From contig CAZUZY010000004.1 in assembly GCA_964624885.1 (NCBI GenBank), positions 1,438 through 65,437 on the forward strand: 64,000 bases of DNA, given 5' to 3'. Both the position numbers and the translations under genes were made by a program. Each line of letters begins with the position of its first letter. Within the stretch, counting starts at the first letter, position 1. Source of the DNA: an uncultured Polyangiales bacterium. GTDB lineage: Bacteria; Myxococcota_A; Polyangia; Polyangiales; JADJMO01. Shown one piece after another: positions 493 to 47,456 of this stretch. The notes beneath the pieces are model-generated. The model was not told the DNA's origin and did no database searches. It was given only the letters and a program-made list of their open reading frames with translations.

Positions 493-951
493 CTATGCGG
501 TGTCATTGGCGACGGGGAGGACAGCTTCCTGGTAGTCCAGCAGGTCCCGCTCGTGCTGGCGGGCAAGCTCCGCCCGCAGGCGGCTCCAGTCAGCCGCCGG
601 TGGCACGTCGATAGCAACCATTTCCTCGGCGAGTTCCGACTCGCATCCACAGGACCGTGCCAGCTCTCGAATCTCGTGGAGGCGATCGGGCGGAGCCACA
701 ACCCGCACGGTTCCGTGCCCCGATGCCCGCACAAGTTCGGTCGCGACCAGGTCACCATTGGTGCGGCGGACCCGAACGTGATCGCCGAGGGCCACGCATG
801 CATAGAACGGGATGTTGTCGAGCACGTACACATTGCCGTCGTCTGACGAGGGAGTCGCCCAGACTCCCTCGCGCCGCACCGGCGGGTAGCCATCGGCGTC
901 GGGCTCGAGCTCAAAGACGATTTTCACATGGGTGGGGTCACTTGTTGTCAT
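493..951 (-). CDS. DUF4265-like immunity protein for the adjacent RHS-HNH toxin
   Basis: 152-aa ORF whose start overlaps the RHS stop by 14 nt (938-951). VKIVFELEPDADGYPP, GVWATP, YVLDNIPFYA, GDHVRV and SGHGTVRVV recall the DUF4265 family found beside polymorphic toxins (family call from memory). GC is lower than in the RHS body. Confidence 0.8.
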   Translation of the reverse strand: MTTSDPTHVKIVFELEPDADGYPPVRREGVWATPSSDDGNVYVLDNIPFYACVALGDHVRVRRTNGDLVATELVRASGHGTVRVVAPPDRLHEIRELARSCGCESELAEEMVAIDVPPAADWSRLRAELARQHERDLLDYQEAVLPVANDTA

Positions 952-1687
952 TGGCGGGCGTCGTCTTCGTCCAGCTGTGTGGCATCGACTGATGTCGAAC
1001 GTTGTCGCGCTTCTCGAGGTTGCACTTCGAACATAGCTTGTCCAGGTTCGTCTCGTCCCCAGCGCCGCCCTTGGACCGCGGGAATCGGTGGTCGCGGCGG
1101 AACTCGTTGGGGTCGGTCGGCTGGTTCTTGACGCTCTGCTTGGCCGGTTTCAGCTCGACCCCGCAGTTCTCGCAGTGCACCCCTCCCCGGGCTACCTCGG
1201 CATTCGTCTCCTGCTTGAGCTTGCGCGTGAAGTCCTTTCCGCCCCGTGGGCCACCAAAGGTGCCGACCTTGGGGATCTTCGCTTCTTCGTCCTTCTTGTG
1301 GAAAGTGTCCACCGCGGTCTTCGTCCCGGCAGCCATGTCGCGGACGCCCGACTGGACCAGCCCCACACCCAACCCCATGACAGCCGTTCCTGCGGCCACG
1401 GCGGGAATCGAGACCGGCGAGCTTGTCCCGGCCGTGGTGACAGTGGCCGCGCCACCGAGTCCAGTCAGGGCAGCCCCTGCGTAGGTCAGCTCGACACCGA
1501 TCCAGGTCTTGATCCCACCGGTGACCGTCTGGCCGACAGCCTCGCCGTACTTGAAGCCAGCGCTGTCGTTGGGCGAGATAGGGATGTACGTCCCTCCAGG
1601 GGTGAGGGCCTTCATCGTCCCGTAGGCGACGCCACCGAGGACATTCGCGACGGGGGCAATCTTCTCCTTCAGCCACTCGCCGAAGGC
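938..1687 (-). other. Variable C-terminal toxin region of the RHS protein: hydrophobic Gly/Ala-rich segment plus HNH nuclease
   Basis: It begins right after the DPSG motif (D codon at 1697-1699). A Gly/Ala-rich hydrophobic stretch (WIGVELTYAGAALTGLGGAATVTTAG...AVAAGTAVMGLGVGLV) comes first. Next is HCENCG...RRDHRFPRSKGG...NLDKLCSKCNLEKRDN, which is the CxxC...DH...N...CxxC pattern of HNH endonucleases. Confidence 0.75.
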
Positions 1688-4566: not shown

Positions 4567-5340
4567 ATGAGCAAGTCGAACAAGTCCTCGAAGAAGGCGC
4601 ACGGCACCAAGAAGAGCACCAAGGCTGCGGCCGCGAAGAGTGCGCCCAAGACGTCCCCGGTCAAGGACGCCAAGCAGGTTGGCTCAAAGGCGCGCGGTGA
4701 CAAGGACGCGGCGCGGCCGCTGACGTCCAGCACGGCGGCGGGGGCGCCGACGACCAAGGTCGGCAAGGCCACGCCCGCGTCGGCGACCCAGAAGACGGCC
4801 ACGTTGCCGGTGACGCAGGAAGTCACCGCGCCGAAGGCGCGCAAGGAGACCCCCGCGTCCGCGAACTCCCGAGCACGCGCCCTGGTCCTCGACGAGTCCG
4901 ACCCCAAGAAGGCCATCGCGGCCCTCCAGAAGTTCGGCTCGACGCAGCTCCAGCGGGCGTTCGGAGACCTCTTCGGCGCCGAGACCACGAGCCGCAACGT
5001 GATGTACCTCCGGAGCGCCATCTCCAAGGGCCTGCTCGACCGGGCGGCAGGTATCCCGCTCGCCGCGCCCGCCGAGGAGAAGAAGGCCGCACGCAACAAG
5101 ATCGTCACCGAGCCCAAGCCGAAGGAGCCGCGCCCGCGGGATCCGCGGCTCCCGGCCGTCGGCACCACGATCGAGCGCCTCTACAAGGGCGAGGCGCTCC
5201 GGGTGAAGGTGCTCGAGGAGGGTTTCCTCTTCAAGGGCACGACGTACCCGAGCCTCTCCGCGCTCGCCAAGTCCCTCACGGGTTGCTCCACGAACGGGTT
5301 CCTCTTCTTCCAGCTCATCGAGCGCCCGGCGAAGGCCTGA
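4567..5340 (+). CDS. DUF2924-like protein with Lys/Ala/Pro-rich N-terminal tail; mobile-element accessory protein
   Basis: The ORF is 4465..5340; I prefer the ATG at 4567 (MSKSNKSSKKAHGTKKSTKAAAAK). The C-terminal GTTIERLYKGEALRVKVLEEGFLFKGTTYPSLSALAKSLTGCSTNGFLFFQL matches my memory of DUF2924, which usually sits beside recombinases. It lies directly upstream of the integrase on the same strand. Confidence 0.75.
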   Translation: MSKSNKSSKKAHGTKKSTKAAAAKSAPKTSPVKDAKQVGSKARGDKDAARPLTSSTAAGAPTTKVGKATPASATQKTATLPVTQEVTAPKARKETPASANSRARALVLDESDPKKAIAALQKFGSTQLQRAFGDLFGAETTSRNVMYLRSAISKGLLDRAAGIPLAAPAEEKKAARNKIVTEPKPKEPRPRDPRLPAVGTTIERLYKGEALRVKVLEEGFLFKGTTYPSLSALAKSLTGCSTNGFLFFQLIERPAKA

Positions 5341-5351
5341 GGGGTCCCGCC

Positions 5352-6578
5352 ATGAGCCAGCCCAAGGCCACCAAGGGACAGCTCAAGTGGTGGGGCAAGT
5401 CCTACTCGGTCAGGGTGCGCTTCGCCGACGGCTCGCGTCGGTGGGTGCCCCTACCCGAGGGGCTCTCCCACGCCGAGGCGGTCGCGCGCGCAGAGGTCGT
5501 CGCCGCTGAGGCGCGGCGGCGGGCGTCACCGGTCGACCTCACCACGCTCACGCAGCCGGGCGAGACCCTCGCCGAGTGGAGCGAGCGGTGGCTCGCGAGC
5601 CGCGTGCAGGCCGGCTATCGCAGCACCAAGGACGACCGCTCGCGCCTGAAGGTGCACATCCTACCGCTCATCGGCGGCGTGAAGATCGCCGCGCTCTCGA
5701 CCGATGACGTCGAGCGCGTGCGCGACCGGCTGGATGCCCGTGTACGCGCCGGGGAGATCGCGTGGGGCACCGCCCAGCTCACGTGGGCGTTGCTCAAGTC
5801 CATGTGCAAGGCCGCGCGGCTCTCGAAGGATCGCGAGCTGCGGGTCCGGCGAGACGATCCCACGCGCGACGTCGCCCCGCCGGATCGTGGGATCGTGAAG
5901 GCGAAGCAGTTCCTCTATCCGAACGAGTTCTTGAAGCTCGTGTCCTGCGAGGAGGTGCCGCTGGCCTGGAGGCGCGCTGTCGTGTTGTCGGTGTACCTCC
6001 TGCTCCGGCAGTCCGAGCTCCAGGCCCTCGCCTGGGACGACCTCGACCTCGAGCACGGCGTCGCCCACGTCCACCGCTCGGTGGACCGCGCAGACCGTGC
6101 CGCCGACAAGACCACCAAGACAGAGACGACTCGCAGACTTGCGATCGAGCCCGCGCTGATGCCTCTCCTGCTCGCCATGCACGAGCAGGCAGGGAAGCCG
6201 AAGAGCGGGCGCGTGCTCGCCGACCTTCCACCCTGGTACGACCTCGCCAAAGGGCTCCGGGCCTACCTCGCGCTCGCGGGCGTCGACCGGCCCGAATTGC
6301 TGGCACGCGGGCCCACGCGGCGGTGGATCACCTTCCACGACTTGAGGGCCACCGGGATCACGTGGATGGCCGTGCGCGGGGACGACCCGCTCAAGATCCG
6401 GCAGCGCGCGGGGCACCAGCACATCGCCACCACCGAGAAGTACATCCGGCTCGCCGAAGACGTGCGGGTTGGGTTTGGCGAGGCGTTCGCGCCACTCCCC
6501 CACCTCGCTCATACGTCAGCGCAAGGTCGACCGTGCGACGGTGACAATGGTCACGGACCTCATGTGACGATCTGGTGA
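5352..6578 (+). mobile_element. Tyrosine recombinase / phage-type integrase
   Basis: The ORF is 5283..6578; the ATG at 5352 (MSQPKATKGQLKWWGKSYSVRV) gives an SAM-like N-terminal domain. The catalytic region has LLLRQSEL, HDLRATGITWMAV and RAGHQHIATTEKYIR (the R...HxxR...H...Y pattern). Confidence 0.9.
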
Positions 6579-6769
6579 AGCTGCGCTTGTGTTGGGCGTC
6601 GACCCGTTGCATCACCGGCCCACTCGCCGAATCCTCGGGAGCCTCGGGGGGGGGCCGCGATCTCCGTCGTAGGGGTTCTCCGGAGCCACCAGGTGGCGTG
6701 GACTGCAACACCACAACGGCGCGCGCGATCCTCGCAGCACTTTGCCATCACACAGTAGCCGGGGGCCTC

Positions 6770-7561
6770 ATGAACAGTTTTCGGAATCTCACGCAGTACG
6801 CCGAGTGCCATCTGGTCTCGAACAACACGGGTACGACTCTGTACCAGTGGTTCACGGATTGGATGTGCTGCGACGGCGTCGATGCCATCCGTGCCGTCCT
6901 CAAGGCCAAGAACGCCACAAGCGCCAACTTCAGCTGGCAACTGGCGATCCAGTACGCACCCGTCCGGTCGGACAATCCCGACGCTCCGGCTGCTATCGGC
7001 AACGGCCAGACAGGCTCCGGCGAGTATCAGACCGGCGACCTCTCCCTGGCCGCACAGGCCGACGCACCCACACATCGCCTCTTTCGTCTCGGCATCGCCT
7101 ACACGAGCGTCAATGCGAGTGTGCAACAAGCCGATGTGAGCCTACAGGCGAGCTACAAGAGTGTCGCGACTCCCCTGGGCATGGCGCGGGCAACGCTTGC
7201 GATCACCGACAGCAGCAACAAGTACGAAGTCCTGACGCCGTGGATTCCCGCGATCTACATGGCCAAGGTGAAAGCTGCCTTCGTCCTGAATAGCATCAAC
7301 CCCTCCAACGGCAACTTCAAGTACCGACTCGCATACCAGACCGCCGGGACGACCGTCACGCAGCCCAGCGCTTGGACGGATATCGAGTCCGGGTGGACTC
7401 AGCCAGGCAACGGAGTAACCTACAGCGAGCGCAACACGGGCGAGGTCACGGTGACGACCTCGGAGATGTGGTTCCGGCTCGGCGTCGCCTACACCCAGGC
7501 CGGTGGGGTTGATACGAACTATACAGCCGTGCTCGAGGCCGTTCTGTCTTGCAGGGCCTAG
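6770..7561 (+). CDS. Hypothetical beta-rich protein made of two homologous halves (ORFan)
   Basis: The ORF is 6575..7561; I prefer the ATG at 6770 (MNSFRNLTQ). There is no signal peptide. GC is about 57 percent with A/T-ending codons atypical for the window. The halves share NFSWQLAIQYA...LFRLGIAYTS with NFKYRLAYQTA...MWFRLGVAYTQ. No family recognised. Confidence 0.65.
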   Translation: MNSFRNLTQYAECHLVSNNTGTTLYQWFTDWMCCDGVDAIRAVLKAKNATSANFSWQLAIQYAPVRSDNPDAPAAIGNGQTGSGEYQTGDLSLAAQADAPTHRLFRLGIAYTSVNASVQQADVSLQASYKSVATPLGMARATLAITDSSNKYEVLTPWIPAIYMAKVKAAFVLNSINPSNGNFKYRLAYQTAGTTVTQPSAWTDIESGWTQPGNGVTYSERNTGEVTVTTSEMWFRLGVAYTQAGGVDTNYTAVLEAVLSCRA

Positions 7562-7569
7562 GGGGAAGA

Positions 7570-8442
7570 ATGCCGAGAATCCAACGCCCAAGCCTTCCAA
7601 ACCCCGCTGTGGCATCAGTCTTCGACCCCGCAGCCGTGCTCTTTCCAACGAACGATTTCCCGGGCACACCAACCGACTTTTTGGGTCCTGGCTCCATGGA
7701 TCCAATTGGCTTCGACGACTCGTTGGATTTTGGAATCTCCTTCGATGATGCGTCCGGTCTTCCCACTGGCCCCTCGGGCGTCGGAGGGGAGACCGAGGAC
7801 CTTGGCGGATGGATCTCCAGCAGACTTGGACGGTCGTCCACGGAGGTCATTCCGATCTCGCCGTGGCCGACAAATGGGGACGGCACCCCTGGAACTCCCA
7901 TCGGCCCGCTCGCACCGTCAAGGGGACTCGGGCCCAACAACTACCCAACGGCGCTCGGAACGGTAGAGGTCTGGGAGATTGCGCCGCGAAACCAGGGTGG
8001 CGGACGGACAACCACCCAGAAGACGGTGCTCGTCGAAGTGGTTCCCGCTGCAAAGAGCGCAGCGCCAAGCCCTTCTTCTCCAAGCTCTCCGCAGCTCACG
8101 GACGGCTGGATTTCGGGACGCGGCTCGACGGCCGCGGAAAGCGCCGCAATGAACGCGCTCGTGCCGAAGAAGCCTGACAGCACGCCCGACCCAACGCGCG
8201 ACCCCGACCGTCTCTCCTGGGCCAGCGCATCGGACTTTGCGAGAGCGATGCGGGGCTTTCGGCCCCGCTCGCCTGCTTCTGACGCTGGGAGTGACGAGAC
8301 CCGCGACGCCCACGGGGCCGTCGCAATTCTCGACCCATGGAGCGAGACGGGATATCGCGCCGTGCGGCCCCGGTCACACACCGCTGCGTCTGTTACCGTG
8401 ACGTATGCTTCGGACAGCCCGGACTTCGGTGCGCCTCGCTGA
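7570..8442 (+). CDS. Hypothetical Pro/Ser/Gly/Thr-rich, probably disordered protein (ORFan)
   Basis: The ORF is 7549..8442. The ATG at 7570 is preceded by gggggaag. It is the only long ORF in this interval, on the same strand and with the same low GC as its neighbours. It has no recognisable domain and no signal peptide. Confidence 0.5.
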   Translation: MPRIQRPSLPNPAVASVFDPAAVLFPTNDFPGTPTDFLGPGSMDPIGFDDSLDFGISFDDASGLPTGPSGVGGETEDLGGWISSRLGRSSTEVIPISPWPTNGDGTPGTPIGPLAPSRGLGPNNYPTALGTVEVWEIAPRNQGGGRTTTQKTVLVEVVPAAKSAAPSPSSPSSPQLTDGWISGRGSTAAESAAMNALVPKKPDSTPDPTRDPDRLSWASASDFARAMRGFRPRSPASDAGSDETRDAHGAVAILDPWSETGYRAVRPRSHTAASVTVTYASDSPDFGAPR

Positions 8443-9508
8443 GGCAACGGTCCTTGCCTCGCTTGCGGCTTGCGTTGCAGGTCCGTCCGCAACGACCCCG
8501 CCGCGCAACGGAAGACCGACCACATCAAACCATCCACGGACCATCATCATTCCTGGCGCACAGGCCTCCAAAGAGGTTCACGCGAAGCTCAAGAATCGCG
8601 GACTCGTGCTTGTGCGCCAGAAACTCAATGGACTCGAGGTGACGTGCCCGGCCGTCGGGCGGGAGGTCTACGGTGTTGTTGACCTTCCTGCCCCATCTTG
8701 GCTCGAGTTGCCCAAACTGACGGCTGAAGAGCTCGCGGAGAATAGTGACGGCTCGGGCGAACTGTCGGCGCAACGTCTTCGGGTTACGCGTCGGCTGTCT
8801 GCCCGGGTCCCCGTCCCGCTTAGCGACCGTTGGCTTGACCACTGCATAGAGGCCACGCACTACGTTGATCGTATCGATGTGGACGTCGACAAGGGTGGCT
8901 CGGAGATCGTCAGACGTCTGGTTCTCGTACCGATCGGCGCCACGGCTCTGCCGCCTGACTGTCGAGGGGACTTTCGCCTCGCCTCTGATATCCCCGATCT
9001 ATGCGTGAAACGAGCCCCACACACATGCAGGATCGGCGACAAGGACTGCCTCGCGCTGTGTGCCGCGGGAGACGCAGGCTCGTGCGAGCGCGCCTCCAGC
9101 GCAGGCGGTCTGACCTTCGGCAAGCTGACGAAGGAGCAGGCTAGTCTCGCGGAGCAGGCCTGCAATCTAAACTCATCTCATTGCTGTTACCTCGCGACGC
9201 TGCTGACATACGACTCATCGGCCTCACAGCGTATCGAGGATGTCGCCACTGGTGGATGCGCGAACGCACAACACAGCTGCTGTCTGGCCCTGGCGATTGG
9301 TCGCCAGAACGGGGGCGCGAAGGAGGGCTCTTCGGCGGCCTACGCGAGCGCCTGCGAGGCTGGCGCAGAAGGGGCGTGTCTACTCTCAGCACGTGCCGCC
9401 GAGTCGGTGGGCAAGTTCGAACTGGCGCAACGCCACGCAGCCGTCGCCTGTCAGGCCGAGGTTCCAGGAGCATGCGAAGAACTCCGTCGTCTCACCAAGG
9501 TCAAGTGA
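8405..9508 (+). CDS. Lipoprotein with C-terminal Cys-paired Sel1/Hcp-like repeats (ORFan)
   Basis: MLRTARTSVRLAEATVLASLAACVAG provides a signal peptide and lipobox. The C-terminal 160 aa carry repeated A..AC..G...(S/A)C motifs (CLALCAAGDAGSCE, AEQACNLNSSHCC, ATGGCANAQHSCC, ASACEAGAEGAC, AVACQAEVPGAC). GC is about 58 percent. Confidence 0.7.
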   Translation: MLRTARTSVRLAEATVLASLAACVAGPSATTPPRNGRPTTSNHPRTIIIPGAQASKEVHAKLKNRGLVLVRQKLNGLEVTCPAVGREVYGVVDLPAPSWLELPKLTAEELAENSDGSGELSAQRLRVTRRLSARVPVPLSDRWLDHCIEATHYVDRIDVDVDKGGSEIVRRLVLVPIGATALPPDCRGDFRLASDIPDLCVKRAPHTCRIGDKDCLALCAAGDAGSCERASSAGGLTFGKLTKEQASLAEQACNLNSSHCCYLATLLTYDSSASQRIEDVATGGCANAQHSCCLALAIGRQNGGAKEGSSAAYASACEAGAEGACLLSARAAESVGKFELAQRHAAVACQAEVPGACEELRRLTKVK

Positions 9509-9704
9509 CCCGTTTTGATGTCGTCTTGAGCCCGCGGACGACAACGGCGTCGGAACGAGAGGTACTTCAAGACACTCGGTAACGGGTCGAGTTTGCTCGG
9601 CATTCCCTCCTCCGTTCTCCTGGTCGGGCCGTAGGGGCTGACAGCCAATCACGCCAGCCCACGCGCAGCCCGATGGCCCACCTCTCGCCAAGAACTCCGC
9701 CCAC

Positions 9705-10045
9705 TCCGCGCTGGGCTGCGCGGGCTGCCCACGTCCATCCGCGGGGTTGGCCACGCCGCACATCGCCTTGGGCACACACGCGACCCCGCCCGGCCCACGC
9801 GATCCCCATGAATCCTCGCCCCGTCGTCGACAACACTCGGTGGGACAACGTCAGCCCGCGATCAGCCTGCGGCACCGCATCCCGGCCATTTCTTCGCGCG
9901 CTTCGCGCTGGGCTGGCCGGGCTGCCGGCGTCCATCCGCGGGGTTGGCCGCGCCGCTCATCGCCCTCGGCACACACGCAACCCGCACCGGCCCACGCAAA
10001 CCCCCTGAATCCTCGCCCCTTCGTCGACAACATCCGCTGGGACAA
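9705..10045. repeat. Two direct copies of a ~144-bp repeat (9705-9848 and 9902-10045), period 197 bp
   Basis: Base-by-base comparison by hand found about 20 mismatches in 144 and no indels (about 86 percent identity). Both copies contain ATCCGCGGGGTTGGCC, GGCACACACGC, CCGGCCCACGC, TGAATCCTCGCCCC and TCGTCGACAACA. They lie in an 825-bp gap with no credible CDS. Confidence 0.9.
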
Positions 10046-37622: not shown

Positions 37623-37721
37623 GCCTGGTGAACCCAGCCAACCGGTGAGCCTGCGCCGACACCGACGAGCTCCTCCGCGCGTCGCCCGACATTGCTCTGT
37701 CGGACCGCGCGAATCGGAGCC

Positions 37722-38333
37722 ATGCTTGGCGCCGTGGACACGTTCACCGCCGCGAGTCAGCACTGTGACATCGTGGAACGCCTGGCCCGCGTGACGCCGG
37801 ATCAACAGGTCCGCGGGGTCTGGTTCGCGATGCTCCACGACGAGGTCCGGCGCCGAGGCGAGACGCTGGGCGCGGCGTTCGACGCCGAGGTCGGCGCCCC
37901 CGACTACGTCACCTTCCGCATGTATCCGGTGGCCGACTACCTGCGGCGCCTGGTGGTGGCGGGGGCCCGCGTGGCCTCGCCCGAGCGCGTGCACGAAGGC
38001 ATGCGCGACCTGCACCGCGAGTCGGTGCGCTACTTCGCGCGGAGCGTGGTCGGGCGCGCGTTCGTCTCGCTCATCCGCTTCTCCCAGACGCCCCTCGGCT
38101 TGTTCCAGCAGGTCGCACGGAGCCGCAGCCACATCGCGACCTACGGGCGCTGGCTCATCGAGCCCATCGCGACCCGGCGGGCGCGCGTGCGCATCGAGGG
38201 CGAGCCGGTCTACGTCGAGAGCGCGCAGGTCGGGGGCATCCTCAGCGTCTGTGACATGTGCGGCGTGCGCGGCGAGATCGAGCACGTCGAGATGCTGGGC
38301 CCGTTCGACGGCATCGTGGAAGTCAGCTGGTAG
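37722..38333 (+). CDS. TIGR02265/DUF2378-like protein (myxobacterial paralogous family)
   Basis: The ORF is 37692..38333; I prefer the ATG at 37722. The size and overall pattern (VRGVWFAMLHDEV, YPVADYLRRLVVAG, RDLHRESVRYF, ESAQVGGILSVCDMCG) match my memory of this family. The family call is moderate. Confidence 0.6.
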   Translation: MLGAVDTFTAASQHCDIVERLARVTPDQQVRGVWFAMLHDEVRRRGETLGAAFDAEVGAPDYVTFRMYPVADYLRRLVVAGARVASPERVHEGMRDLHRESVRYFARSVVGRAFVSLIRFSQTPLGLFQQVARSRSHIATYGRWLIEPIATRRARVRIEGEPVYVESAQVGGILSVCDMCGVRGEIEHVEMLGPFDGIVEVSW

Positions 38334-38336
38334 GGA

Positions 38337-39686
38337 TCAGCCGCTGCGACGCAGGCGATCGAGGCGGCGCTGGAACGCCTTGCGCTGCACCCCGAGCAGT
38401 CGGGCGGCGGCGCTCTTGTTGCCGTCGCACTCGAGCATGGCGGCCGTCAGCAGCTTCTCCTCGGCGATGTGCAGGCGCGAGCGGCCGTCGGGCGCGGGGA
38501 GGTGCAGCAGGGTCTGTACGGCCTCGCCGACGTCGGTCGTGGTCTCGGTGGGCGGCACGAGCGCCTCGAGGGTCGGGACGTCGACGTGGGGGTCCTCGGC
38601 GAGCACCGCGAGCCGCTCCACGACGTTGTGGAGCTCGCGCACGTTGCCCGGCCACGGCCGGTGGCGCAGCCACTCGAGCGCCTCGCGGGTGAACGTGAGG
38701 CCCCGCGGCTGGGCGGCGGCGAACGCCTCGACGAGCTCGCGCACGTCGTCGCCGCGCGCGGCGAGCGAAGGCACCGCGACCACCACCACCGACAGCCGGT
38801 GGTAGAGGTCTTCGCGGAAGAGCCCCTGGCGCACCCGGGCCAGGAGGTCGACGTGGGTGGCCGCCACGATGCGCGCGCGCAGGGCCACCTCGCGCTCGGC
38901 ACCGAGGGGTCGGAAGCTCCGATCGTCGAGCACGTGGAGCAGCTTCGCCTGCATCTCGAGCGGGAGCTCGGCGATCTCGTCGAGGAGCAGCGTGCCGCCG
39001 CCGGCGAGCTCGAGGTGCCCACGCACGCGGCGATCGGCGCCGGTGAACGCCCCGCGCTCGTGGCCGAACAACGACGACTCGACCAGCGTCGGCGGCATCG
39101 CCGCGCAGTGCACGACGACGAACGGCTCGGCCGCCCGCCGGCTCGCGCGGTGGAGCGCGCGTGCGACGAGGCCCTTGCCCGCGCCCGTCTCCCCGCGCAG
39201 GAGCACGGTGGAGGGGGTGTCGGCGACGCGCGCGATCAGCTGGCGCAGGTGCTCCATGGCCGGTGACGAGCCCAGCACCTCGTTGTGCGAGGTCACCCGC
39301 ACGCGGCTCGGCGGCGGCTCGCGGAGCTCCTCGAGCAAGGGGACGAGCACCTGCGCGCTCAGCTCGTCCTTGAGGAGGTAGTCGCGCGCGCCGAGGCGCA
39401 GGGCCTCGCGCACGTCCTCGAGCTCACTGGAGGAGGTGAGGACGATGGTGGGCAGCGCGCGGCCTGCCTGTCGGAGCTCGCGGAGCAGGTCGAAGCCGCC
39501 CCGATCGGTCGGACGATCGCTGAGGCGCACGTCGAGGATCATGGCGTCGATCGCCACGCGCTCGAGGGCGAGGCGGGCCGTGGCGACGTCTTCGGCCTCG
39601 ATCACGTCGACGTCTCCGAGGCGACCGATCATCGCGCGCAGGACCTGCCGCAGACGGCGGCTGTCCTCGACCAACAGGATTTTCAC
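38337..39686 (-). CDS. Sigma54-dependent enhancer-binding response regulator (NtrC family)
   Basis: The ORF is 38337..39836; I prefer the GTG at 39686 (VKILLVEDS). The receiver has DAMILDVRLSD. The AAA+ domain has Walker A GETGAGKG, the GAFTGA loop (ERGAFTGA), and LLLDEI. The C-terminal Fis-type HTH is GNKSAAARLLGVQRKAFQRRL. Confidence 0.92.
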   Translation of the reverse strand: MKILLVEDSRRLRQVLRAMIGRLGDVDVIEAEDVATARLALERVAIDAMILDVRLSDRPTDRGGFDLLRELRQAGRALPTIVLTSSSELEDVREALRLGARDYLLKDELSAQVLVPLLEELREPPPSRVRVTSHNEVLGSSPAMEHLRQLIARVADTPSTVLLRGETGAGKGLVARALHRASRRAAEPFVVVHCAAMPPTLVESSLFGHERGAFTGADRRVRGHLELAGGGTLLLDEIAELPLEMQAKLLHVLDDRSFRPLGAEREVALRARIVAATHVDLLARVRQGLFREDLYHRLSVVVVAVPSLAARGDDVRELVEAFAAAQPRGLTFTREALEWLRHRPWPGNVRELHNVVERLAVLAEDPHVDVPTLEALVPPTETTTDVGEAVQTLLHLPAPDGRSRLHIAEEKLLTAAMLECDGNKSAAARLLGVQRKAFQRRLDRLRRSG

Positions 39687-39713
39687 GGGGTCCAAACATA
39701 CGTCGCCGTGGGC

Positions 39714-39745
39714 CGTTTTCGACCCCGACCTGGACGTTTCCGACC
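39714..39745 (+). promoter_or_regulatory. Direct repeat CGTTT(T/C)CGACC x2 (period 21 bp); candidate upstream activator site
   Basis: The copies are at 39714-39724 and 39735-39745, with 10 of 11 bases identical. They lie 57-88 bp upstream of the -24 element, between the EBP gene and its putative target promoter. Confidence 0.3.
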
Positions 39746-39800
39746 AGCCGACACCTCCCACGCCGACTCCCTCGACCGGCGTCTGCCCTACATCCACCCA

Positions 39801-39816
39801 CGGCACGGTCGATGCT
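39801..39816 (+). promoter_or_regulatory. Sigma54 (-24/-12) type promoter for the ThDP-enzyme/KASIII operon
   Basis: cGGCACGgtcgaTGCt has GG at 39802-39803 and GC at 39814-39815, exactly 10 nt apart. It matches GGCACG-N4-(T)TGC. An RBS-like gggagga at 39836-39842 and the ATG at 39848 follow. A sigma54 EBP gene is divergently adjacent. Confidence 0.65.
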
Positions 39817-39847
39817 CTCGCGCGGCGCGAACCCACGGGAGGATTCC

Positions 39848-41572
39848 ATGCACACCCAGGAAATCGAGCTCAGTCCACGTCCACAGAGCCGCACGTCGAG
39901 CGAGACGAGCGGTGCGCACCTGCTGCTCGACACGCTCCTCGGCCACGGCATCGACGTCGTGTTCGGCTTGCCGGGCGGCACGATCATGCCGCTGTACGAC
40001 GCGCTCGGGGATCGGTCGGCGATCGAGGTGGTGACGTGTCGTCACGAGACGGCCGCGATGTTCGCCGCGATGGGTTACGGGCGAGCGACCGGTCGACCCG
40101 CGCTCGTGCTCGTGACGTCGGGGCCGGGCCTCACCAACGCGCTCACGGGCCTCGCCGCGGCGGCGTGCGAGGGGATCCCGCTCCTCGTCGTCGCGGGCGA
40201 GATCTCCACCGCGAGCGTCGGGCGCTTCGCGCTGCAGGACGGGAGCCCGAGTGGGCTCGACGTCCTCTCGTTGACCCGCCCCCTCACCCGCTTCTCCGCG
40301 CGCGTCGATCGGCCGACCGCGCTGGAGGCGCTGGTCCGGAGGGCGCTGGCCGAAGCGACCGGCCCCCGCCCCGGCCCGGTGTTCCTATCGCTGCCGCTCG
40401 ACGTCGCGCGGGCCAAGGTGCGTCCCCACAGCCTGGGCGGCGCGGTCCAGGCGACCCACGAGACGACCGACCGGAGCGCGTGCGAGGCAGCGGCGCGGCT
40501 CCTCGGGCGCGCCACGCGCCCGGCGATCGTGCTCGGCAACGGCGCGCGCGAACGGGGCCTGTCCACGCTGGTGGAGGAGATCGCCGAGCGGACCCACGCG
40601 ATGGTCACGGCCACGACCCACGGCAAGGGCGCGTTCCCGGAGCGCCACCCACGCTACCTCGGGGTCCTCGGATTCGGGGGCCACGCACGGGCGCTCGACT
40701 ACCTCGCGAGCGCCGACCTCACGCTGGTGGTCGGGTCGCGCCTCGGGGACATCTCGACCAACGGCTGGACGGTCTCGTTCGGTGGCCCGCTGGTCCACGT
40801 CGACCGGGATCCCACGGCGATCGGGCGCAACCACCCGACGGAGCTGGGCATCGTCGGCGACGCCCGCGCGAGCCTCGCGGCGATCCGCGCGGCGCTGCCG
40901 GCGCGCGCCTCGTACGCACCGCACCCCTCGGGCCTCGCCCTCGACGAGGACCCCCGGCGCGCCGACACCAGCGTGCCCCTCAAGCCCCAGTGGTTGATGG
41001 CGACCCTCGAGCGCGCGCTGCCCCGATCGACGATCTTCACGGTCGACATCGGCGAGCACGCCGCGTTCGCGGTGCACCACCTCCGGGTCGACGGGCCGGA
41101 GCGGTTCCACATGTTCGCCGGGCTCGGCTCGATGGGGAGCGGGATCTGCGCCGCCATGGGGTTCAAGGTCGCCCACCCGAACACGCCCGTGGTCGCGATC
41201 TGCGGCGACGGCGGCCTCGCGATGCACGCGGGCGAGCTGCTCACCTGCGCGGAGAACGGCATCAACGTGACGTTCGTGGTCCTGAACGACGGGCGCTACC
41301 GGATGGTCGACGCCGGCCTCCAGCACATCTTCGGGCGACGCTCACCAGGCCTCCCGGCCCACGTGGCCGACCTCGCGAGCCTGGCCCGCGCCTGCGGGGT
41401 GATCGGCGTCACGGTCGACGCGCCGGGCGACCTCGACTCGCGGCGACTGTCCGCGCTCTTGTCGATCCAGCGCCCCGTGGTGCTGGACGTGCGCATCGAC
41501 CCGAGCGAGCACCTCTCGATCCAGACGCGGCTCGCCTCGCTCAAGCACTTCTCCGAGGAGGGTGGACGATGA
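39848..41572 (+). CDS. Thiamine-diphosphate-dependent enzyme, acetolactate-synthase-like
   Basis: The ORF is 39812..41572; I prefer the ATG at 39848. The N-terminal Pyr domain has GIDVVFGLPGG...RHETAAMFAAMGY...TSGPGLTNALTGLAAA. The ThDP-binding motif is GDGGLAMHAGELLTCAENGINVTFVVLNDGRY. Confidence 0.9.
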   Translation: MHTQEIELSPRPQSRTSSETSGAHLLLDTLLGHGIDVVFGLPGGTIMPLYDALGDRSAIEVVTCRHETAAMFAAMGYGRATGRPALVLVTSGPGLTNALTGLAAAACEGIPLLVVAGEISTASVGRFALQDGSPSGLDVLSLTRPLTRFSARVDRPTALEALVRRALAEATGPRPGPVFLSLPLDVARAKVRPHSLGGAVQATHETTDRSACEAAARLLGRATRPAIVLGNGARERGLSTLVEEIAERTHAMVTATTHGKGAFPERHPRYLGVLGFGGHARALDYLASADLTLVVGSRLGDISTNGWTVSFGGPLVHVDRDPTAIGRNHPTELGIVGDARASLAAIRAALPARASYAPHPSGLALDEDPRRADTSVPLKPQWLMATLERALPRSTIFTVDIGEHAAFAVHHLRVDGPERFHMFAGLGSMGSGICAAMGFKVAHPNTPVVAICGDGGLAMHAGELLTCAENGINVTFVVLNDGRYRMVDAGLQHIFGRRSPGLPAHVADLASLARACGVIGVTVDAPGDLDSRRLSALLSIQRPVVLDVRIDPSEHLSIQTRLASLKHFSEEGGR

Positions 41573-42633
41573 GCGCCACGATCCACGGCCTCGGGCTCTA
41601 CCTGCCCGAGACGGTACGGCGCAACGAGGACTGGCCGCCCTCGTTCCGCGAGCAGTTCGAGCGCCTGCGCCGCGACGACCTCACCCGCATCGATCCCGCC
41701 GACGACGCGATTGGAGCCCTCGCCGAGCGCCACGCCGCGATCCACGAGCGCGACCCGTTCCGCGGCGCGCGGCAACGGCACGTCGCCGTCGAGACGACCT
41801 CGAGCGAGGCCGGGGCCCGGGCGGCAGAGGCTGCCCTCGCGGACGCCGGGATCGACGCCTCGGAGGTGGACCTCGTGCTCTCGCACGCGCTCGTGCCCGA
41901 GCGCGTGTCGCCCCCGGATGCGGCCCGCATCGCGGCGCACCTCGGCATCCGGCGGGCGGCGGCGCTGGGGCTCGACGCGGTGTGCGCTTCGGTGATCGCG
42001 CAGCTCGTGGTGGCGAGCGCGATGATCGAGAGCGGCCGCGCGCGTCGTGTGCTCCTCGTGCAGTCGCACCTCGTGTCACCCACGCTCGACTGGACGAAGC
42101 CGGCGTCGGCGATCTTCGGCGACGCGGCCACCGCGCTGGTGGTCGGGCCGGGCGCGCCCGGTGAGGGGCTCCGCGCCGATGTGGCCTCCGTCGACGGCGC
42201 GATGCACGCGGCCGTGAGCTTCGAGCGGCGGGAGGGGACGCCCTGGTACACCGGGGGTGAAGCGATGCACCCGGCGAGCGCGGATCGCGCGGCCACCCAG
42301 CGCATGACGTCGCGCCTCCTGCACTTCGGCGTCGACACGCTCGGCGCCCTGTTCGACCGCGCGCACATCCACGGCGGTGACGTCGACGTGCTCGCCACCA
42401 TCCAGCCCGCCGCGTGGTACCCGACAGCACTCGGCGAAGCGGTGGGGGTGCCGCGGGGCCGCGCCCCTTCGACCTTCGACCGCATCGCGCACGTCGGGGC
42501 CTGCGGCGTGGTTGCCAACCTGCTCGAAGCGCGCGCGCAGGGGCTGCTCGTGCCCGGTGCCCAGGTGGTCCTCTACGCGCACGGCGCGGGGATGAACTGT
42601 GTGGCAGCTCTGCTCCGATGGGGGCAAAGGTAG
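41569..42633 (+). CDS. KASIII (FabH)-like thiolase-fold protein with non-canonical active-site motifs
   Basis: The in-frame ATG at 41569 lies within ORF 39436..42633 and overlaps the upstream stop (ATGA). The FabH-like layout has the Cys motif LGLDAVCASVIAQL. The position of PHQAN reads ATIQPAAW, and the position of HGNTSAAS reads AHVGACGVV. Confidence 0.8.
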   Translation: MSATIHGLGLYLPETVRRNEDWPPSFREQFERLRRDDLTRIDPADDAIGALAERHAAIHERDPFRGARQRHVAVETTSSEAGARAAEAALADAGIDASEVDLVLSHALVPERVSPPDAARIAAHLGIRRAAALGLDAVCASVIAQLVVASAMIESGRARRVLLVQSHLVSPTLDWTKPASAIFGDAATALVVGPGAPGEGLRADVASVDGAMHAAVSFERREGTPWYTGGEAMHPASADRAATQRMTSRLLHFGVDTLGALFDRAHIHGGDVDVLATIQPAAWYPTALGEAVGVPRGRAPSTFDRIAHVGACGVVANLLEARAQGLLVPGAQVVLYAHGAGMNCVAALLRWGQR

Positions 42634-42677: not shown

Positions 42678-44165
42678 ATGTCGGGGCGGCCGTTCACAAC
42701 CCACATCCTCACGACGCCCTCGCGAGCGACCGCCGTCCGCCAGGCGCTGCTCGCGTCTGGCGTCGACGCGCAGTTGCTGGTCGGGGAGATCACCCTGCTC
42801 GCGGAGACGCTCCGCAAGGGCGACCCCTCGGTGGTGCTCATCGGCGTCGCCGACGAGGGCGTTCATCGCGGCTGCCTCGACGAGATCATCTCCTATCGCG
42901 CGCTCACCCCGGAGCTGCTCGCCCTCGCGGCGCGCACGAGTGTCGAGCGGGTGGCCATGGTCTCTCGCCTGGCAGACGCCGAGCGTTCGAGCCGCCACAA
43001 GGAGCAGCTCGCGTCCCTCGGGGTGGTGGTCGCGGGCGCGATGCACGAGATCAACAACCCGACCGCCGCCCTGCGGCTCAGCATGGAGGCCCTCGGAGAC
43101 CTGGTCGGCGAGCTGCGCACCGAGGTGGCCCGCCTCGAGGAGCTGCTCGTGGCCCCGGGCGCGCACGAGCTCGAGGCGGCGCGAGCCTCCGTCGGTCAGC
43201 TGCACGCGCTCTTGCGGGAGGACGGCGCCACGAGCCTCATCGGTGACTCGCTCGAGGACCTGCACGTGATCCGCGACGTCGCCCGCGATCTGCGCACCAT
43301 CGCCTCGGTGGAGTCGAAGGACGTGGCGCCCGAGATCGTCAACGTGGCCACCGTCGTCAAGCAGGCGCTGCGCCTCTCCCCGATCGATCCCGACGTCGTG
43401 CACGTGGAGCTCGACTTCTCCGATCCGGTCCCGCTGCTCTGGCTCCCACGCTCGCGACTCGTCCAGATCGTGAGCAACCTGGTGACCAACGCCTGCCACG
43501 CGATGCAGCAGATCGAGCGGCCGATGCACCGCCTGCGGATCAGCGTGCGCGAGGACGAGACCACCCTCTTGCTCGCGGTCAGCGACACCGGCATCGGCAT
43601 CGAGCCCGAGGTGCTGCCGTCGGTGTTCGAGCCGTTCTTCACGACCAAGGGCCCCGAGCGCGGCACCGGGCTCGGCCTCTCGATGTCGCGCGAGATCGTG
43701 CGGCGCCTCGGTGGCGATCTGTGCATCGACGCCATCGCCGGTGAGGGCGCCATCGCGATGGTGTTCCTGCCCCTCAGCCTCCGCGCCGACGTCACGCCCC
43801 CGCCGAGCGACCGTCAACGGCCGCGGGTGCTGCTCGTCGACAGCGACTTCGAGCGACTGCGGCGCATGGAGCGCGCGCTGCGCCACGACTTCGAGGTGCT
43901 CGTCGCGCAGAGCGGGCTCGACGCGCTCGCGTTGCTGGAGTCGGGCGCGCGCGTCGACGGGATCCTCGGCGAGGCGACGATGCGCGAGATGGACGGGGAG
44001 GCGTTCCTCGGCGAGGTGAAGGCGCACTGGCCCAGCCGTCAGCGGCACGTCGTCCTCTATGGCAGCGAGACGCCGGTCGAGGGTGTTCGGGTCGCGCACT
44101 GCCCGAGCGACGACGCGGCGTGGCTCGCGCTCGCCCGAGAGGCCACCGGGATGGCCTTGCACTAG
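42678..44165 (+). CDS. Hybrid sensor histidine kinase (pseudo-receiver N-terminus, HisKA, HATPase, C-terminal receiver-like domain)
   Basis: 495 aa. The H-box is GAMHEINNPTAAL. The N-box is VSNLVTNACHAM and the G-boxes are DTGIGI and GTGLGLSMS. The C-terminal region is VLLVDSDFERL...DGILGEATMREMDG. It starts 45 nt downstream of the KASIII-like gene. Confidence 0.88.
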   Translation: MSGRPFTTHILTTPSRATAVRQALLASGVDAQLLVGEITLLAETLRKGDPSVVLIGVADEGVHRGCLDEIISYRALTPELLALAARTSVERVAMVSRLADAERSSRHKEQLASLGVVVAGAMHEINNPTAALRLSMEALGDLVGELRTEVARLEELLVAPGAHELEAARASVGQLHALLREDGATSLIGDSLEDLHVIRDVARDLRTIASVESKDVAPEIVNVATVVKQALRLSPIDPDVVHVELDFSDPVPLLWLPRSRLVQIVSNLVTNACHAMQQIERPMHRLRISVREDETTLLLAVSDTGIGIEPEVLPSVFEPFFTTKGPERGTGLGLSMSREIVRRLGGDLCIDAIAGEGAIAMVFLPLSLRADVTPPPSDRQRPRVLLVDSDFERLRRMERALRHDFEVLVAQSGLDALALLESGARVDGILGEATMREMDGEAFLGEVKAHWPSRQRHVVLYGSETPVEGVRVAHCPSDDAAWLALAREATGMALH

Positions 44166-44313: not shown

Positions 44314-45162
44314 ATGACGCTCGCTCGCTCCCTCGTGGTGGTGCTCTCGCTCGGTCTCGTCGTGGGCTGCGCTGCCCAGCACGAAGACCCGAGCGACGCG
44401 CTGGTCGGTGCGGAGGAGCCCGACGACGACGCCGACCTGCGCGGCGCGGAATCGGTGACCGACACCCTCGCGGCGGGCGCGCAGCTGCGGACCAACGCGG
44501 CGCTCAACCTGCGGGCGAGCCCTTCGAAGAGCGCGACGATCCTCGAGGTGATGCCGGAGGGCACGCTCGTCACCGCCGTCACCGGGAAGCCGAGCGCGGG
44601 CTGGTATCAGGTGAAGCACGGCGCGAAGACGGGCTGGGCCTACGGCGTCTACCTCGACCGCGTGACGAGCAGCGGAGGCTCCACCGCCGCCGGCGGCTCG
44701 TGCTCGCCCGCGCGCGCCATCGGGATCGTGAGCGCGCCCAAGAAGGCGCTGCTCGACACGATCGCCTACGCCGAGGGCACGCGGGGCTACAGCCAGGATG
44801 GCTACGACGTGATGTTCTCGTTCAAGACCTTCAGCAGCTGCGACAGCCACCCGCGCCAGACGCTCTGCTCGGGTGGGTACTGCTCGACGGCGGCCGGGCG
44901 CTACCAGTTCCTCTCCACCACCTGGGACGGCCTCAAGCTGCCGAACTTCCGCCCCGAGAACCAGACCACCGGCGCCATGACCCTCATCGCCTGGCGCAAG
45001 GCGACCATCCCGGCCGACCGTCCGCTCACCGCGACCGAGTTCACCAACGTGATGAACAAGATCTCGTACGAGTGGGCCTCGCTGCCGCCGGGGCGCTACG
45101 GGCAGCCGATCAAGACGATGTCGCAGCTGCGCACCGAGTACTGCAAACTCGCCAAGTGCTGA
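44314..45162 (+). CDS. SH3b-domain plus GH104 (lambda-R-type) lytic transglycosylase lipoprotein
   Basis: The ORF is 44059..45162. The ATG at 44314 gives MTLARSLVVVLSLGLVVGCAA. The SH3b-like segment is LNLRASPSKSATILEVMPEGTLV...GWYQVKH..KTGWAYGVYL. The GH104 motifs are LLDTIAYAEGT, GYDVMF, DSHPR, AAGRYQFL and EWASLPPGRYGQ, compared with phage lambda R from memory. Confidence 0.85.
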   Translation: MTLARSLVVVLSLGLVVGCAAQHEDPSDALVGAEEPDDDADLRGAESVTDTLAAGAQLRTNAALNLRASPSKSATILEVMPEGTLVTAVTGKPSAGWYQVKHGAKTGWAYGVYLDRVTSSGGSTAAGGSCSPARAIGIVSAPKKALLDTIAYAEGTRGYSQDGYDVMFSFKTFSSCDSHPRQTLCSGGYCSTAAGRYQFLSTTWDGLKLPNFRPENQTTGAMTLIAWRKATIPADRPLTATEFTNVMNKISYEWASLPPGRYGQPIKTMSQLRTEYCKLAKC

Positions 45163-45938
45163 CGGGACGACAGACCTTCGCCTTGCTCGGGGTGCTCGCG
45201 GCGCTCGTGGCCCTCGCCGCGTGGCGGCTCGTCGCGCCTGCGCCGACGCCGCTCGGATCGACGGCGTCGAGCGGCGTGCCGTCGGCCAGCATGGTCACGC
45301 CCTCGCTCAGCGGTGCAACATCGGCGCCCCCACCTTCCGTGGTCCCGTCGAGCCCTTCGCCGGTCACCAGCGGCAAAGCGGGGGGACTCGTGGTGGCGCT
45401 CGCCTCCACCGACCCGTTCGTGCGTCGGAAGGCCATCGAGGACGCGGTGGTCGCCAAGGACGTCACTGCGCTCGCCGAGCTCTACCAGGTGGACCTCGCG
45501 GCGAACGGCTACGTGGCGGCGGCGGCGATCGACGGTGTCGGCAAGCTCGCGGCGCTGCTGCCGATGGCCGAGCGCAAGGAGGCGATCCGCACGCTGGATC
45601 GCTGGCTGCGGGCGGAGTCCCAGCGCGACGCGAAGGAGGCCGTCGGCAACGCCTCGATCGCGGTGGACGCCCTCGGGGAGACCAAGTCGAAGGACGCGGT
45701 GACGCCGCTGATCGACGCGCTCGACGGAGGGCGTCTGCCCTTGCACGTGCAGACGCGCATCGTCGAGGTGCTCGGCACGCTGGACGACCCCCGCGCGGCG
45801 CCGAGCGTGCAACGGTTCCTCTCGCGGGTGGAGGCGGAGGCCAAGAAGCTGACCGACGCCAGCGACGCCTTGGAGCGCGAGCTGCTCACCGAAGCCAAGG
45901 CGGCGGGCGACGCGGCGCTGGCGCGCTGGTCCCACTGA
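45156..45938 (+). CDS. Membrane-anchored HEAT-repeat protein
   Basis: The in-frame GTG at 45156 lies within ORF 44700..45938 and overlaps the lysozyme stop by 7 nt. A TM helix (FALLGVLAALVALAAW) and a Ser/Pro linker come first. HEAT/PBS-lyase-type repeats follow (DPFVRRKAIEDAV, AIDGVGKL, AVDALGETKSKDAVTPLIDAL, RIVEVLGTLDDPRAAPSVQRFL). Confidence 0.65.
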   Translation: MLTGRQTFALLGVLAALVALAAWRLVAPAPTPLGSTASSGVPSASMVTPSLSGATSAPPPSVVPSSPSPVTSGKAGGLVVALASTDPFVRRKAIEDAVVAKDVTALAELYQVDLAANGYVAAAAIDGVGKLAALLPMAERKEAIRTLDRWLRAESQRDAKEAVGNASIAVDALGETKSKDAVTPLIDALDGGRLPLHVQTRIVEVLGTLDDPRAAPSVQRFLSRVEAEAKKLTDASDALERELLTEAKAAGDAALARWSH

Positions 45939-46103: not shown

Positions 46104-47456
46104 ATGCTCCGGACGGAGACAGGCACGCGCGCACCGAGGGCAGCGGCCATCACAGCCGACTTCTTGCACGAGCCACCGAGCGAACGGGTGACCGTCCCTT
46201 CCGTCCTGTCTCCTGGCCAGCAGGTCGACGGACGCTTCTGCCTCGAGCAGCCGCTCGGCGCCGGCGCCCAGGCCGACGTCTGGCGCGCGCGGGACATCCA
46301 CCTCGAGCGGCACGTCGCGCTCAAGGTGTTGCGGGGGTCGGCGGCCACGGGGTTGCACAGCGCGGCGCGCTTCCGGCGGGAGGCGGCCATGCTCGCCCGC
46401 CTGCGCAGCGCGCACCTGGCGACCATCTTCGGCTTCGGCTTCATCGAAGGCGAGCCCTACTTCGCGATGGAGCTCGTGGACGGCAAGAGCCTGCTCGAGC
46501 TCTGGGACGTGCACCTCGAGGCCCAGCGCCCGATGCCGCTCGGTCGCACGGTGGAGATCGTGGCGGACGCCGCGCGGGGCCTCTCGGTCGCGCACGCGCA
46601 GGGCATCGTCCACCGCGACGTCAAGCCCGAGAACGTGATGATCGAGGACGACACCGGTCGGGTGGTCGTCGTGGACTTCGGCGTCGCGCTGGATCGCGAC
46701 GACGTCGGCGACGGCATGATCTACGGCACCCCGGAGTACCTGGCGCCCGAGCTCTTGCGGGGCTCTCCGGCGAGCGCGCTGAGCGATCAGTACGGGCTCG
46801 CGCTGATCGCCTACGAGCTCCTGGTCGGATCGCTGCCGTTCGCGCACGAGCCCGCCACGATGCAGATCCTCCGGCGCGGCGAGGAGGGGCTGCCTGCCCC
46901 GTCGATCGCCCGGGCGGAGCTCGCGCCGCTCGACCGCGTGCTGCTCCGCGCGCTGTCGCCCGATCCCGCGGAGCGCTATCCGACCTGCGTGGCGCTGGGG
47001 AACGCCCTGACGCAGGCGATCGGCGGCCCGGCCCACGCGGCCCTCGACGGCAACGTGCGGGTGCTCGTCGTCGACGACGATCCGCTGTTCGGTCGGCTCG
47101 TGACGCGGTGCCTGCACGTGGCGCTCGCCGGGATCCCGCTGACCATCGAGCGCGCGACGGATCCGCGCGCGGCCCTCGAGAAATGCCGACAAGAGCTGCC
47201 CGAGCTCGTCGTGCTCGACTACGCGATGCCGGGGATGGACGGCGTGGAGCTCCTCTCGCAGGTGCGCGCGCTCCCCGAGGGCGACGCGGTGCGAGCCGTC
47301 GTCCTGAGCGGCGCCACCGACAACCAGACGCGACTGCGGTTCGCCATGCTCGGCGTGCGCACCTTCGCGACCAAGCCGATCGACTTCGAGGCCCTCGTGA
47401 CGACCCTGCGACGGCTGGCGCGATCGAACGGGTGGGTCACCGCAGGGGTCGAATGA
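46104..47456 (+). CDS. Ser/Thr protein kinase fused to a C-terminal receiver domain
   Basis: 450 aa. Hanks motifs are present: GAGAQADVW, VALKVL, HRDVKPENVMI, DFGVA and GTPEYLAPE. The receiver follows: VLVVDDDPLF...LVVLDYAMPGMDG...TKPI. Confidence 0.9.
   Translation: MLRTETGTRAPRAAAITADFLHEPPSERVTVPSVLSPGQQVDGRFCLEQPLGAGAQADVWRARDIHLERHVALKVLRGSAATGLHSAARFRREAAMLARLRSAHLATIFGFGFIEGEPYFAMELVDGKSLLELWDVHLEAQRPMPLGRTVEIVADAARGLSVAHAQGIVHRDVKPENVMIEDDTGRVVVVDFGVALDRDDVGDGMIYGTPEYLAPELLRGSPASALSDQYGLALIAYELLVGSLPFAHEPATMQILRRGEEGLPAPSIARAELAPLDRVLLRALSPDPAERYPTCVALGNALTQAIGGPAHAALDGNVRVLVVDDDPLFGRLVTRCLHVALAGIPLTIERATDPRAALEKCRQELPELVVLDYAMPGMDGVELLSQVRALPEGDAVRAVVLSGATDNQTRLRFAMLGVRTFATKPIDFEALVTTLRRLARSNGWVTAGVE

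Follow-up and report, generated by a model that had tools for sequence, protein, structure and literature searches.

To our knowledge, enzymes that resemble beta-ketoacyl-acyl carrier protein (ACP) synthase III (KASIII) and are paired with a thiamine diphosphate (ThDP)-dependent enzyme are a recently recognized route to lactone and carbazole scaffolds, and only two of them, CybF and CqsB1/NzsJ, have been studied. In the biosynthesis of cyanobacterin and the furanolides, CybE joins two 2-oxoacids into an acyloin acid, and the KASIII-like furanolide synthase CybF O-acylates this product with coumaroyl-coenzyme A (CoA) and closes the lactone through a formal Morita-Baylis-Hillman reaction followed by a hydride shift (PMC12395478, PMC13288894). 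Plesiocystis pacifica and Enhygromyxa salina, both myxobacteria, are reported to carry co-localized homologs of cybE and cybF (PMC8777810), and the furanolide nostoclide, which has been assigned to a cyb-like cluster, is a chemical mediator in Nostoc (PMC9324945). In carbazole biosynthesis, the ThDP enzyme CqsB3/NzsH is followed by the KASIII-like CqsB1/NzsJ in a decarboxylative C-C condensation (PMC7466098). Here we describe another such pair, encoded in a 64,000-nucleotide stretch of the genome of an uncultured Polyangiales bacterium (assembly GCA_964624885.1, contig CAZUZY010000004.1, positions 1,438 to 65,437; hereafter, the window), in which the active site of the KASIII-like member, P0001 (41569..42633, forward strand; 354 amino acids), appears to have been rebuilt around a cysteine and two histidines.

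The stretch 41569-42633 encodes a genuine gene, identified from its translation, Pfam matches, family alignments and a structural model. Both the Pfam domains ACP_syn_III (PF08545, 4e-15) and ACP_syn_III_C (PF08541, 7e-13) are recognized, and the AlphaFold2 (AF2) model built on 30 homologs has a predicted local distance difference test score (pLDDT) of 93.7 and a predicted template modeling score (pTM) of 0.93. The top Foldseek matches of this model are FabH crystal structures, with template modeling (TM) scores of 0.79-0.90, so that Pfam and the AF2/Foldseek comparison both give the thiolase fold with N- and C-terminal ACP_syn_III domains. The protein falls under the curated NCBIfam cut-offs for FabH (127 bits versus 249 for NF006829 and 118 versus 292 for TIGR00747). 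The alignments and the AF2 model further reveal an N-terminal insertion of about 45 residues (residues 20-65; 41626..41763, +), which consists of two helices, ends in DPFRG, has no counterpart in FabH and is common to the CybF-type proteins. The ATG of the gene overlaps the stop codon of the ThDP gene upstream (ATGA, in the context ggacgATGAgc).

Equivalences with FabH residues were obtained by three agreeing routes, namely, phmmer against the FabHs of the PDB, MAFFT alignment with canonical FabHs and hhalign comparison of the family profile with the Escherichia coli FabH that is annotated in the K-12 genome (NC_000913); conservation was read from an alignment of 30 family sequences and from 28 species-level loci of GTDB genomes. 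The segment LDAVCASVIAQL (residues 135-146) contains Cys139 (codon 41983..41985, +), the equivalent of the FabH nucleophile Cys112, which is a cysteine in 28 of 28 GTDB loci and nearly invariant in the alignment. The glycine-rich loop of the oxyanion hole (G304-G306 in FabH) is represented by the invariant Gly339-Ala340-Gly341 (42583..42591, +). The FabH pair His244-Gln245 corresponds to Ile278-Gln279 (42400..42405, +) in ATIQPAAW (276-283), where the glutamine is invariant, the catalytic histidine is lost, and position 278 is occupied across the family by I, V, F, M, T, S or L, in no case by His. The equivalent of FabH Asn274 is His308 (42490..42492, +) of the motif A-H-V-G, which is kept in 30/30 aligned homologs and in 28/28 GTDB loci, and the equivalent of FabH Asp140 is the likewise invariant His167 (42067..42069, +) of the motif Q-S-H. 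All 28 GTDB loci conform to the pattern Cys / S-H / non-His-Q-P / [A/G]-H-x-G. P0001 accordingly shares with FabH the fold, the two Pfam domains, the cysteine nucleophile and the oxyanion loop, and FabHs are its best PDB matches; it differs in the insertion and in the replacement of His244 by Ile, Asn274 by His and Asp140 by His, so that the Cys-His-Asn triad (C112, H244, N274) is reduced to C139, with Ile278 and His308 in the remaining two places. The original prediction, which was aligned by eye, correctly had the nucleophile retained and His244 lost, but it put Gly at the position of Asn274, being two residues off within AHVGACGVV (307-315), where the equivalent residue is His308; it also missed His167, and the 'Cys-only' site that it proposed proves wrong because Cys139 is accompanied by two invariant histidines. 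When the alignments were searched for a His plus an Asn or Asp in the catalytic positions, a single histidine in a canonical position, His308, was found, and no such pair.

Cys139, His167, Gln279, His308 and the Gly-Ala-Gly loop are invariant or nearly so among sequences that are merely 40-45% identical. Because the residue pattern is the same across the family and the GTDB loci, it appears to reflect a selected, family-wide rebuilding of the active site rather than chance or decay, and the same conservation, in the 30-sequence alignment and the 28 loci, speaks against a decayed pseudo-enzyme. Position 167 holds His in the P0001 family, Cys in the CybF-type clade and Asp or Glu in canonical FabHs, which suggests a functional position specific to this superfamily. 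We liken it to Glu192 of chalcone/stilbene synthases, and its presumed nearness to the catalytic cysteine draws in part on this likeness; we infer that both His167 and His308 lie near Cys139.

Several groups of thiolase-fold enzymes have departed from the FabH triad, and P0001 resembles none of them fully. The KAS I/II enzymes (FabB/FabF) have a Cys-His-His triad, the second His of which stabilizes the enolate and sits where FabH has Asn; by this textbook scheme, His308 occupies the position of that second His, but the first triad His is missing in P0001, and its overall sequence is of the KASIII type. PqsC, of the PqsBC complex, has a Cys-His dyad, the His of which is the 244-equivalent, and depends on a PqsB-like partner, whereas CerJ and DpsC keep a His at the 244-equivalent and an Asp at the 274-equivalent, with Cys or Ser as the nucleophile. 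Like P0001, these proteins are KASIII-like, have lost part of the Cys-His-Asn triad, perform non-FabH chemistry and are among the PDB matches of P0001; unlike P0001, they retain the 244-His and alter the Asn position, which is the reverse of what is seen here. In particular, P0001 has no His at 278 and no second KASIII-like gene adjoining it, as would be expected of a PqsC, and the Ile and His that it has at the 244- and 274-equivalents depart from the CerJ/DpsC pattern, the match to CerJ (3s3l) having an E-value of 2.7e-8.

The closest described relatives are the CybF-type proteins. As the reference for these we used the homolog of E. salina SWB005 (L049:1306-2418), a 1113-bp gene on contig 249 according to PMC8777810, which is preceded by a ThDP gene; another candidate, P0184, turned out to be a different paralog, on contig 231 and without a ThDP neighbor. 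In the hhalign comparison, the P0001 family profile scored higher against this CybF homolog (209, E = 8e-30) than against E. coli FabH (185, 1e-26), and the alignment included the N-terminal insert, DPFRG, P-x-x-W and A-[H/N]-V-G. Thus, P0001 and the CybF-type proteins have in common the KASIII-like thiolase fold, the cysteine nucleophile and the location of the gene right after or beside that of an acetolactate synthase (ALS)-like ThDP enzyme, and they share derived features, namely, the DPFRG insert, the P-x-x-W that follows 'His244' and the A-[H/N]-V-G at 'Asn274'. A search started from the E. salina homolog recovered a large clade with members from Enhygromyxa, Pseudenhygromyxa and other Myxococcota as well as a protein of a Scytonema plasmid. 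Among the approximately 119 members tabulated, the residues are Cys at the nucleophile position, Cys167 (in about 115), His or Asn at 278 (about half each) and Asn308 (in all), whereas P0001 has C / H / I / H, with His167, Ile278 and His308 in place of the CybF-type residues, and does not match the Cys139-Cys167-Asn308 set. The P0001 cassette also differs in that it has no adjacent ammonia-lyase or CoA-ligase genes and includes the conserved DUF2378 and hybrid kinase genes described below. Given that the identity to the E. salina homolog is 28% (80 bits) and that the two fall into separate clades in the tree, P0001 appears to be related to the CybF-type enzymes yet outside their clade, and its catalytic residues differ from theirs.

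An exhaustive HMMER search of 1.84 billion representative sequences yielded 570 proteins at E <= 1e-30, of which the best 150 cover the full length, the N-terminal insert of about 45 residues included. The catalytic columns, tabulated over 259 sequences, show that the superfamily contains many active-site variants. The clade of the window protein shows Cys / His167 / [I,V,F..]-Gln / His308; in the sister clade, His308 is present and position 167 is Ser or Asn; in other large clades, His-Gln is combined with Ser, Thr or Asn at 308; and canonical FabHs have Asp/Glu at 167, His-Gln, and Asn at 308. Close homologs, which score more than about 380 bits against the family profile, were all found in metagenome-assembled genomes of Polyangia-type Myxococcota or in soil and sediment metagenomes. 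Of 401 genomes sampled evenly across the phylum, 4, all from one order, encode a member of the strict family and 17 one of the looser superfamily. The family seems to be separate from the CybF clade, and Polyangia-type Myxococcota are the sole group in which it was found here. Members of the sister clade (L046, E. salina SWB005 PVNK01000231, gene 7001-8125; L047, gene 7001-8122) adjoin genes for very large AAA_16 (STAND-like) proteins; their neighbors are not DUF2378 and a kinase, and no ThDP gene adjoins the E. salina copy.

The gene directly upstream of P0001 (39848..41572, +; a longer open reading frame (ORF) starts at 39812) encodes a ThDP-dependent, ALS-like enzyme of 575 amino acids, which has all three TPP_enzyme domains and the GDG...ND ThDP motif. 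A ThDP gene lies directly upstream of the KASIII-like gene in every GTDB locus for which upstream DNA is available (26/26), and also adjoins the genes of the more distant relatives P0060, P0113 and P0163, of which P0113 is additionally located beside a kinase gene. The original prediction that the KASIII-like protein is no ordinary malonyl-decarboxylating FabH and that it works with the adjacent ThDP enzyme is supported, the former by the replacement of both His244 and Asn274 and by the sub-threshold NCBIfam scores, the latter by this invariable gene order. Its proposal that a carbanion is handed over from the ThDP enzyme did not hold up any better than the cysteine-only site, because in the known systems an acyloin acid is released instead for the KASIII-like enzyme. 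The ThDP partner was considered as an ortholog of CybE, and this assignment was dropped given that it is 32% identical to the CybE homolog versus 36% to a paralog from its own genome.

Two further ThDP/KASIII-like pairs are encoded in the same genome. On contig C328 (L055), a CybF-type KASIII-like gene (8409-9485, +) with the pattern Cys / Cys167 / Asn / Asn is accompanied by a ThDP gene (4786-6435, -), two histidine kinase genes (1-4128, +, and 6534-8240, -) and a gene for a TetR-family regulator (9465-10043, -). Contig C312 (L054) begins within a ThDP gene, the C-terminal part of which (2-667, +) is followed by a KASIII-like gene that ends at 1773 (+) and belongs to the 'S-H-Q-P ... G-S-I-N-S' type, with the His retained and the Asn changed to Ser; an alpha/beta hydrolase gene comes next. 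Several other FabH-like genes are located elsewhere in this genome.

The pair in the window is part of a larger cassette, in the order DUF2378, enhancer-binding protein, sigma54-type promoter, ThDP enzyme, KASIII-like enzyme, hybrid histidine kinase. The kinase gene (42678..44165, +), which starts 45 nucleotides past the stop codon of the KASIII-like gene, encodes a soluble protein with a HATPase_c domain and a C-terminal receiver, and the DUF2378 gene (37692..38333, +) encodes a protein with an H-NOX-like fold, recognized by Pfam, AF2 and Foldseek, that is a candidate ligand sensor. Among 30 GTDB loci, DUF2378 is found within about 3 kb in 24 and the orthologous hybrid kinase in about 22, and their placement differs between loci: some lie upstream in the same orientation, others downstream in the opposite one, and others again between the genes. 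In a rearranged locus on a Joint Genome Institute (JGI) metagenome contig (L056; KASIII-like gene 5001-6068), which belongs to a subclade where Tyr replaces Cys139 and where His167 and His308 are kept, the ThDP, KASIII-like, start-overlapped DUF2378 and hybrid kinase genes remain together in a changed order, with a tryptophan-halogenase-like gene added. Because the synthase pair is linked to DUF2378 and the kinase even where the gene order differs, a signaling role of its product is suggested. Past the kinase, a HEAT-repeat ORF (44700-45938) is followed by a gene for a Ser/Thr kinase with a C-terminal receiver (46104-47456); both are probably outside the cassette, being syntenic in the two closest genomes only (L006 and L007).

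The search of PDB sequences with the DUF2378 protein gave no match, whereas its AF2 model (pLDDT 89) has H-NOX domains as its top 40 Foldseek matches, with E-values down to 2e-6 and TM-scores of 0.6-0.7. No invariant or near-invariant histidine that could be the conserved proximal heme ligand is found among the 24 cassette-linked DUF2378 sequences, and for this reason heme binding seems unlikely. A tblastn search had indicated that DUF2378 is present once in the genome, which was overturned by a search with the Pfam model that detected three copies. Contig C207 (L058:70-2211, +) of the same genome encodes a 713-amino-acid fusion of a Ser/Thr protein kinase domain with a DUF2378 domain, a link of the Rosetta-stone type, and the existence of this fusion suggests that DUF2378 may serve as an input domain of kinases. 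The cassette resembles the H-NOX/kinase pairs in that a stand-alone DUF2378 protein of the H-NOX fold is encoded beside a kinase without a sensor domain of its own; it differs in that DUF2378 has no conserved heme His and would bind the molecule made by the synthase pair instead of a gas.

Between the DUF2378 gene and the ThDP gene, an NtrC-type sigma54 enhancer-binding protein (EBP; REC-AAA-HTH by domain composition) is encoded divergently (38337..39836, -), and a sigma54-type -24/-12 promoter-like element, GGCACG-N4-ATGCT, was detected by its motif at 39802..39816 (+), against a background expectation of 0.012 per 510 bp. Given that the longest EBP ORF would overlap this promoter, translation of the EBP probably begins at a start codon downstream of the first one. 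The motif and the EBP are jointly kept in just 3 of 26 related loci, the nearest relatives (L006, L007 and L011), which rules out sigma54 control as a general trait of the cassette and, as the element and the EBP are conserved in the nearest relatives alone, suggests that this control is a recent addition.

Taken together with what is known of CybE and CybF, these observations lead us to propose, with a probability of roughly one in two, that P0001 is the second enzyme of a CybE/CybF-type two-enzyme pathway for a small molecule, with a lactone-type diffusible signal as the product. Judging from its family, the ThDP partner would supply an acyloin acid. An acyl group from acyl-CoA or acyl-ACP would then be loaded onto Cys139, a half-reaction that is plausible because the cysteine and the Gly339-Ala340-Gly341 oxyanion loop are intact. 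P0001 would move this acyl group to the acyloin, the hydroxyl of which is the likeliest acceptor, before closing a butenolide- or furanolide-like lactone, with His308, which replaces the Asn, and His167, which stands where CybF has its second Cys, acting as acid/base or enolate-stabilizing groups. Decarboxylation of malonyl would play no part, given that the His244/Asn274 pair of FabH is gone. Ring closure might start with alpha-deprotonation of an ordinary acyl chain instead of the Michael-addition (Morita-Baylis-Hillman) route that CybF takes with a cinnamoyl-type chain, a speculative proposal that is suggested by the change of Cys167 to His and by the fact that no ammonia-lyase or CoA-ligase gene adjoins the pair. 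The product would, by analogy, probably be a diffusible signal, which the DUF2378 protein and the sensorless hybrid kinase would bind and transduce in the manner of the H-NOX/kinase pairs, and in the lineage of the window the operon would be controlled by the sigma54 promoter and the divergent EBP.

Several considerations weigh against this proposal. The E. salina CybF homolog, to which P0001 is just 28% identical, was itself assigned by similarity to the CybF of Tolypothrix, and the chemistry of CybF may not be retained, as P0001 has other residues in place of both its second Cys and its invariant Asn. The P0001 pair and the CybE/CybF pair may have been assembled independently, because the ThDP partner is at least as similar to a paralog from its own genome as to the CybE homolog. 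The small subclade with Tyr in place of Cys139 sits poorly with an obligatory acyl-Cys intermediate, and the closeness of the two histidines to Cys139 is read off alignment positions. Furthermore, a kinase gene may be linked to the synthase pair without the kinase sensing what the pair makes.

We weighed four alternatives, given here in order of falling likelihood. With acyl-Cys139 formed as above, it could be attacked by the enolate of a decarboxylating alpha-hydroxy-beta-keto acid, as in CqsB1/NzsJ, in a C-C condensation that would yield an acyclic acylated acyloin (a hydroxy-diketone). Cys139 and the oxyanion loop are conserved as such a reaction would demand, and His308 is at the site of the enolate-stabilizing second His of textbook KAS I/II enzymes, but we consider this outcome unlikely because the derived motifs of P0001 are shared with the CybF-type clade. 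The precedent itself is close, as this reaction is already known for a ThDP-paired KASIII-like enzyme, and the carbazole systems likewise combine a ThDP acyloin synthase with a KASIII-like enzyme that uses an acyloin acid, not malonyl-ACP (PMC7466098). However, NzsJ homologs retain the canonical catalytic residues, by their description, whereas P0001 has lost His244 (PMC7466098), and CqsB1/NzsJ requires the carbazole synthase CqsB2/NzsI; neither a counterpart of this cyclase nor a supply of ACP is encoded in the neighborhood of the pair in the window or in the related loci. A lesser chance goes to a plain O-acyltransferase of the CerJ/DpsC/ChlB6 kind, which would esterify the acyloin hydroxyl from acyl-CoA and stop there. 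KASIII-like acyltransferases typically retain the Cys and have lost the residues for decarboxylation, as P0001 has, and CerJ is among the PDB sequence matches; it scores, however, far under the FabHs, the textbook pattern of CerJ/DpsC is the opposite of that in P0001, and the two extra invariant histidines suggest chemistry beyond acyl transfer. The product of such an enzyme would be an acylated acyloin, for which the xenocyloins (XclA and acylating enzymes) may be a parallel.

It is improbable that P0001 has no catalytic role at all, being instead a PqsB-like scaffold or a degenerate FabH paralog that stabilizes or regulates the ThDP enzyme. Such a role would account for the replacement of both canonical residues of the second half-reaction and for the Tyr139 subclade, which has dispensed even with the Cys, but the conservation of the active-site residues at 40-45% identity implies that selection acts on the active site. 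The prospect of an ordinary FabH-type ketosynthase that initiates fatty-acid or polyketide synthesis with an unusual primer is slighter still. FabH structures are indeed the best structural and sequence matches; on the other side stand the changes at His244 and Asn274, the scores below all NCBIfam FabH cut-offs, the absence of ACP, fab or polyketide synthase (PKS) genes from the conserved neighborhood of P0001, and the presence of the other FabH-like genes in the genome.

The pairing of a ThDP enzyme with a KASIII-like enzyme is in itself of an already known kind, exemplified by CybE/CybF for furanolides and CqsB3/CqsB1 for carbazoles. What is new here is the same scaffold apparently re-equipped with a cysteine and two relocated histidines. 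With at least three ThDP/KASIII-like pairs in a single genome, uncultured myxobacteria may harbor unexplored chemistry and products of this type. More tentatively, the four genes could form a self-contained signal-synthase/receptor module of Polyangia myxobacteria, in which a synthase with histidine-based instead of Cys/Asn-based chemistry would make a new butenolide- or acyloin-derived autoinducer and DUF2378 would be a heme-free, H-NOX-like receptor that recognizes this lipid-like molecule and controls the kinase; if true, this would be the first function for DUF2378 and a new class of bacterial signaling system. The linkage of DUF2378 and a sensorless kinase to the synthase pair thus offers a testable hypothesis for a new small-molecule signaling system.

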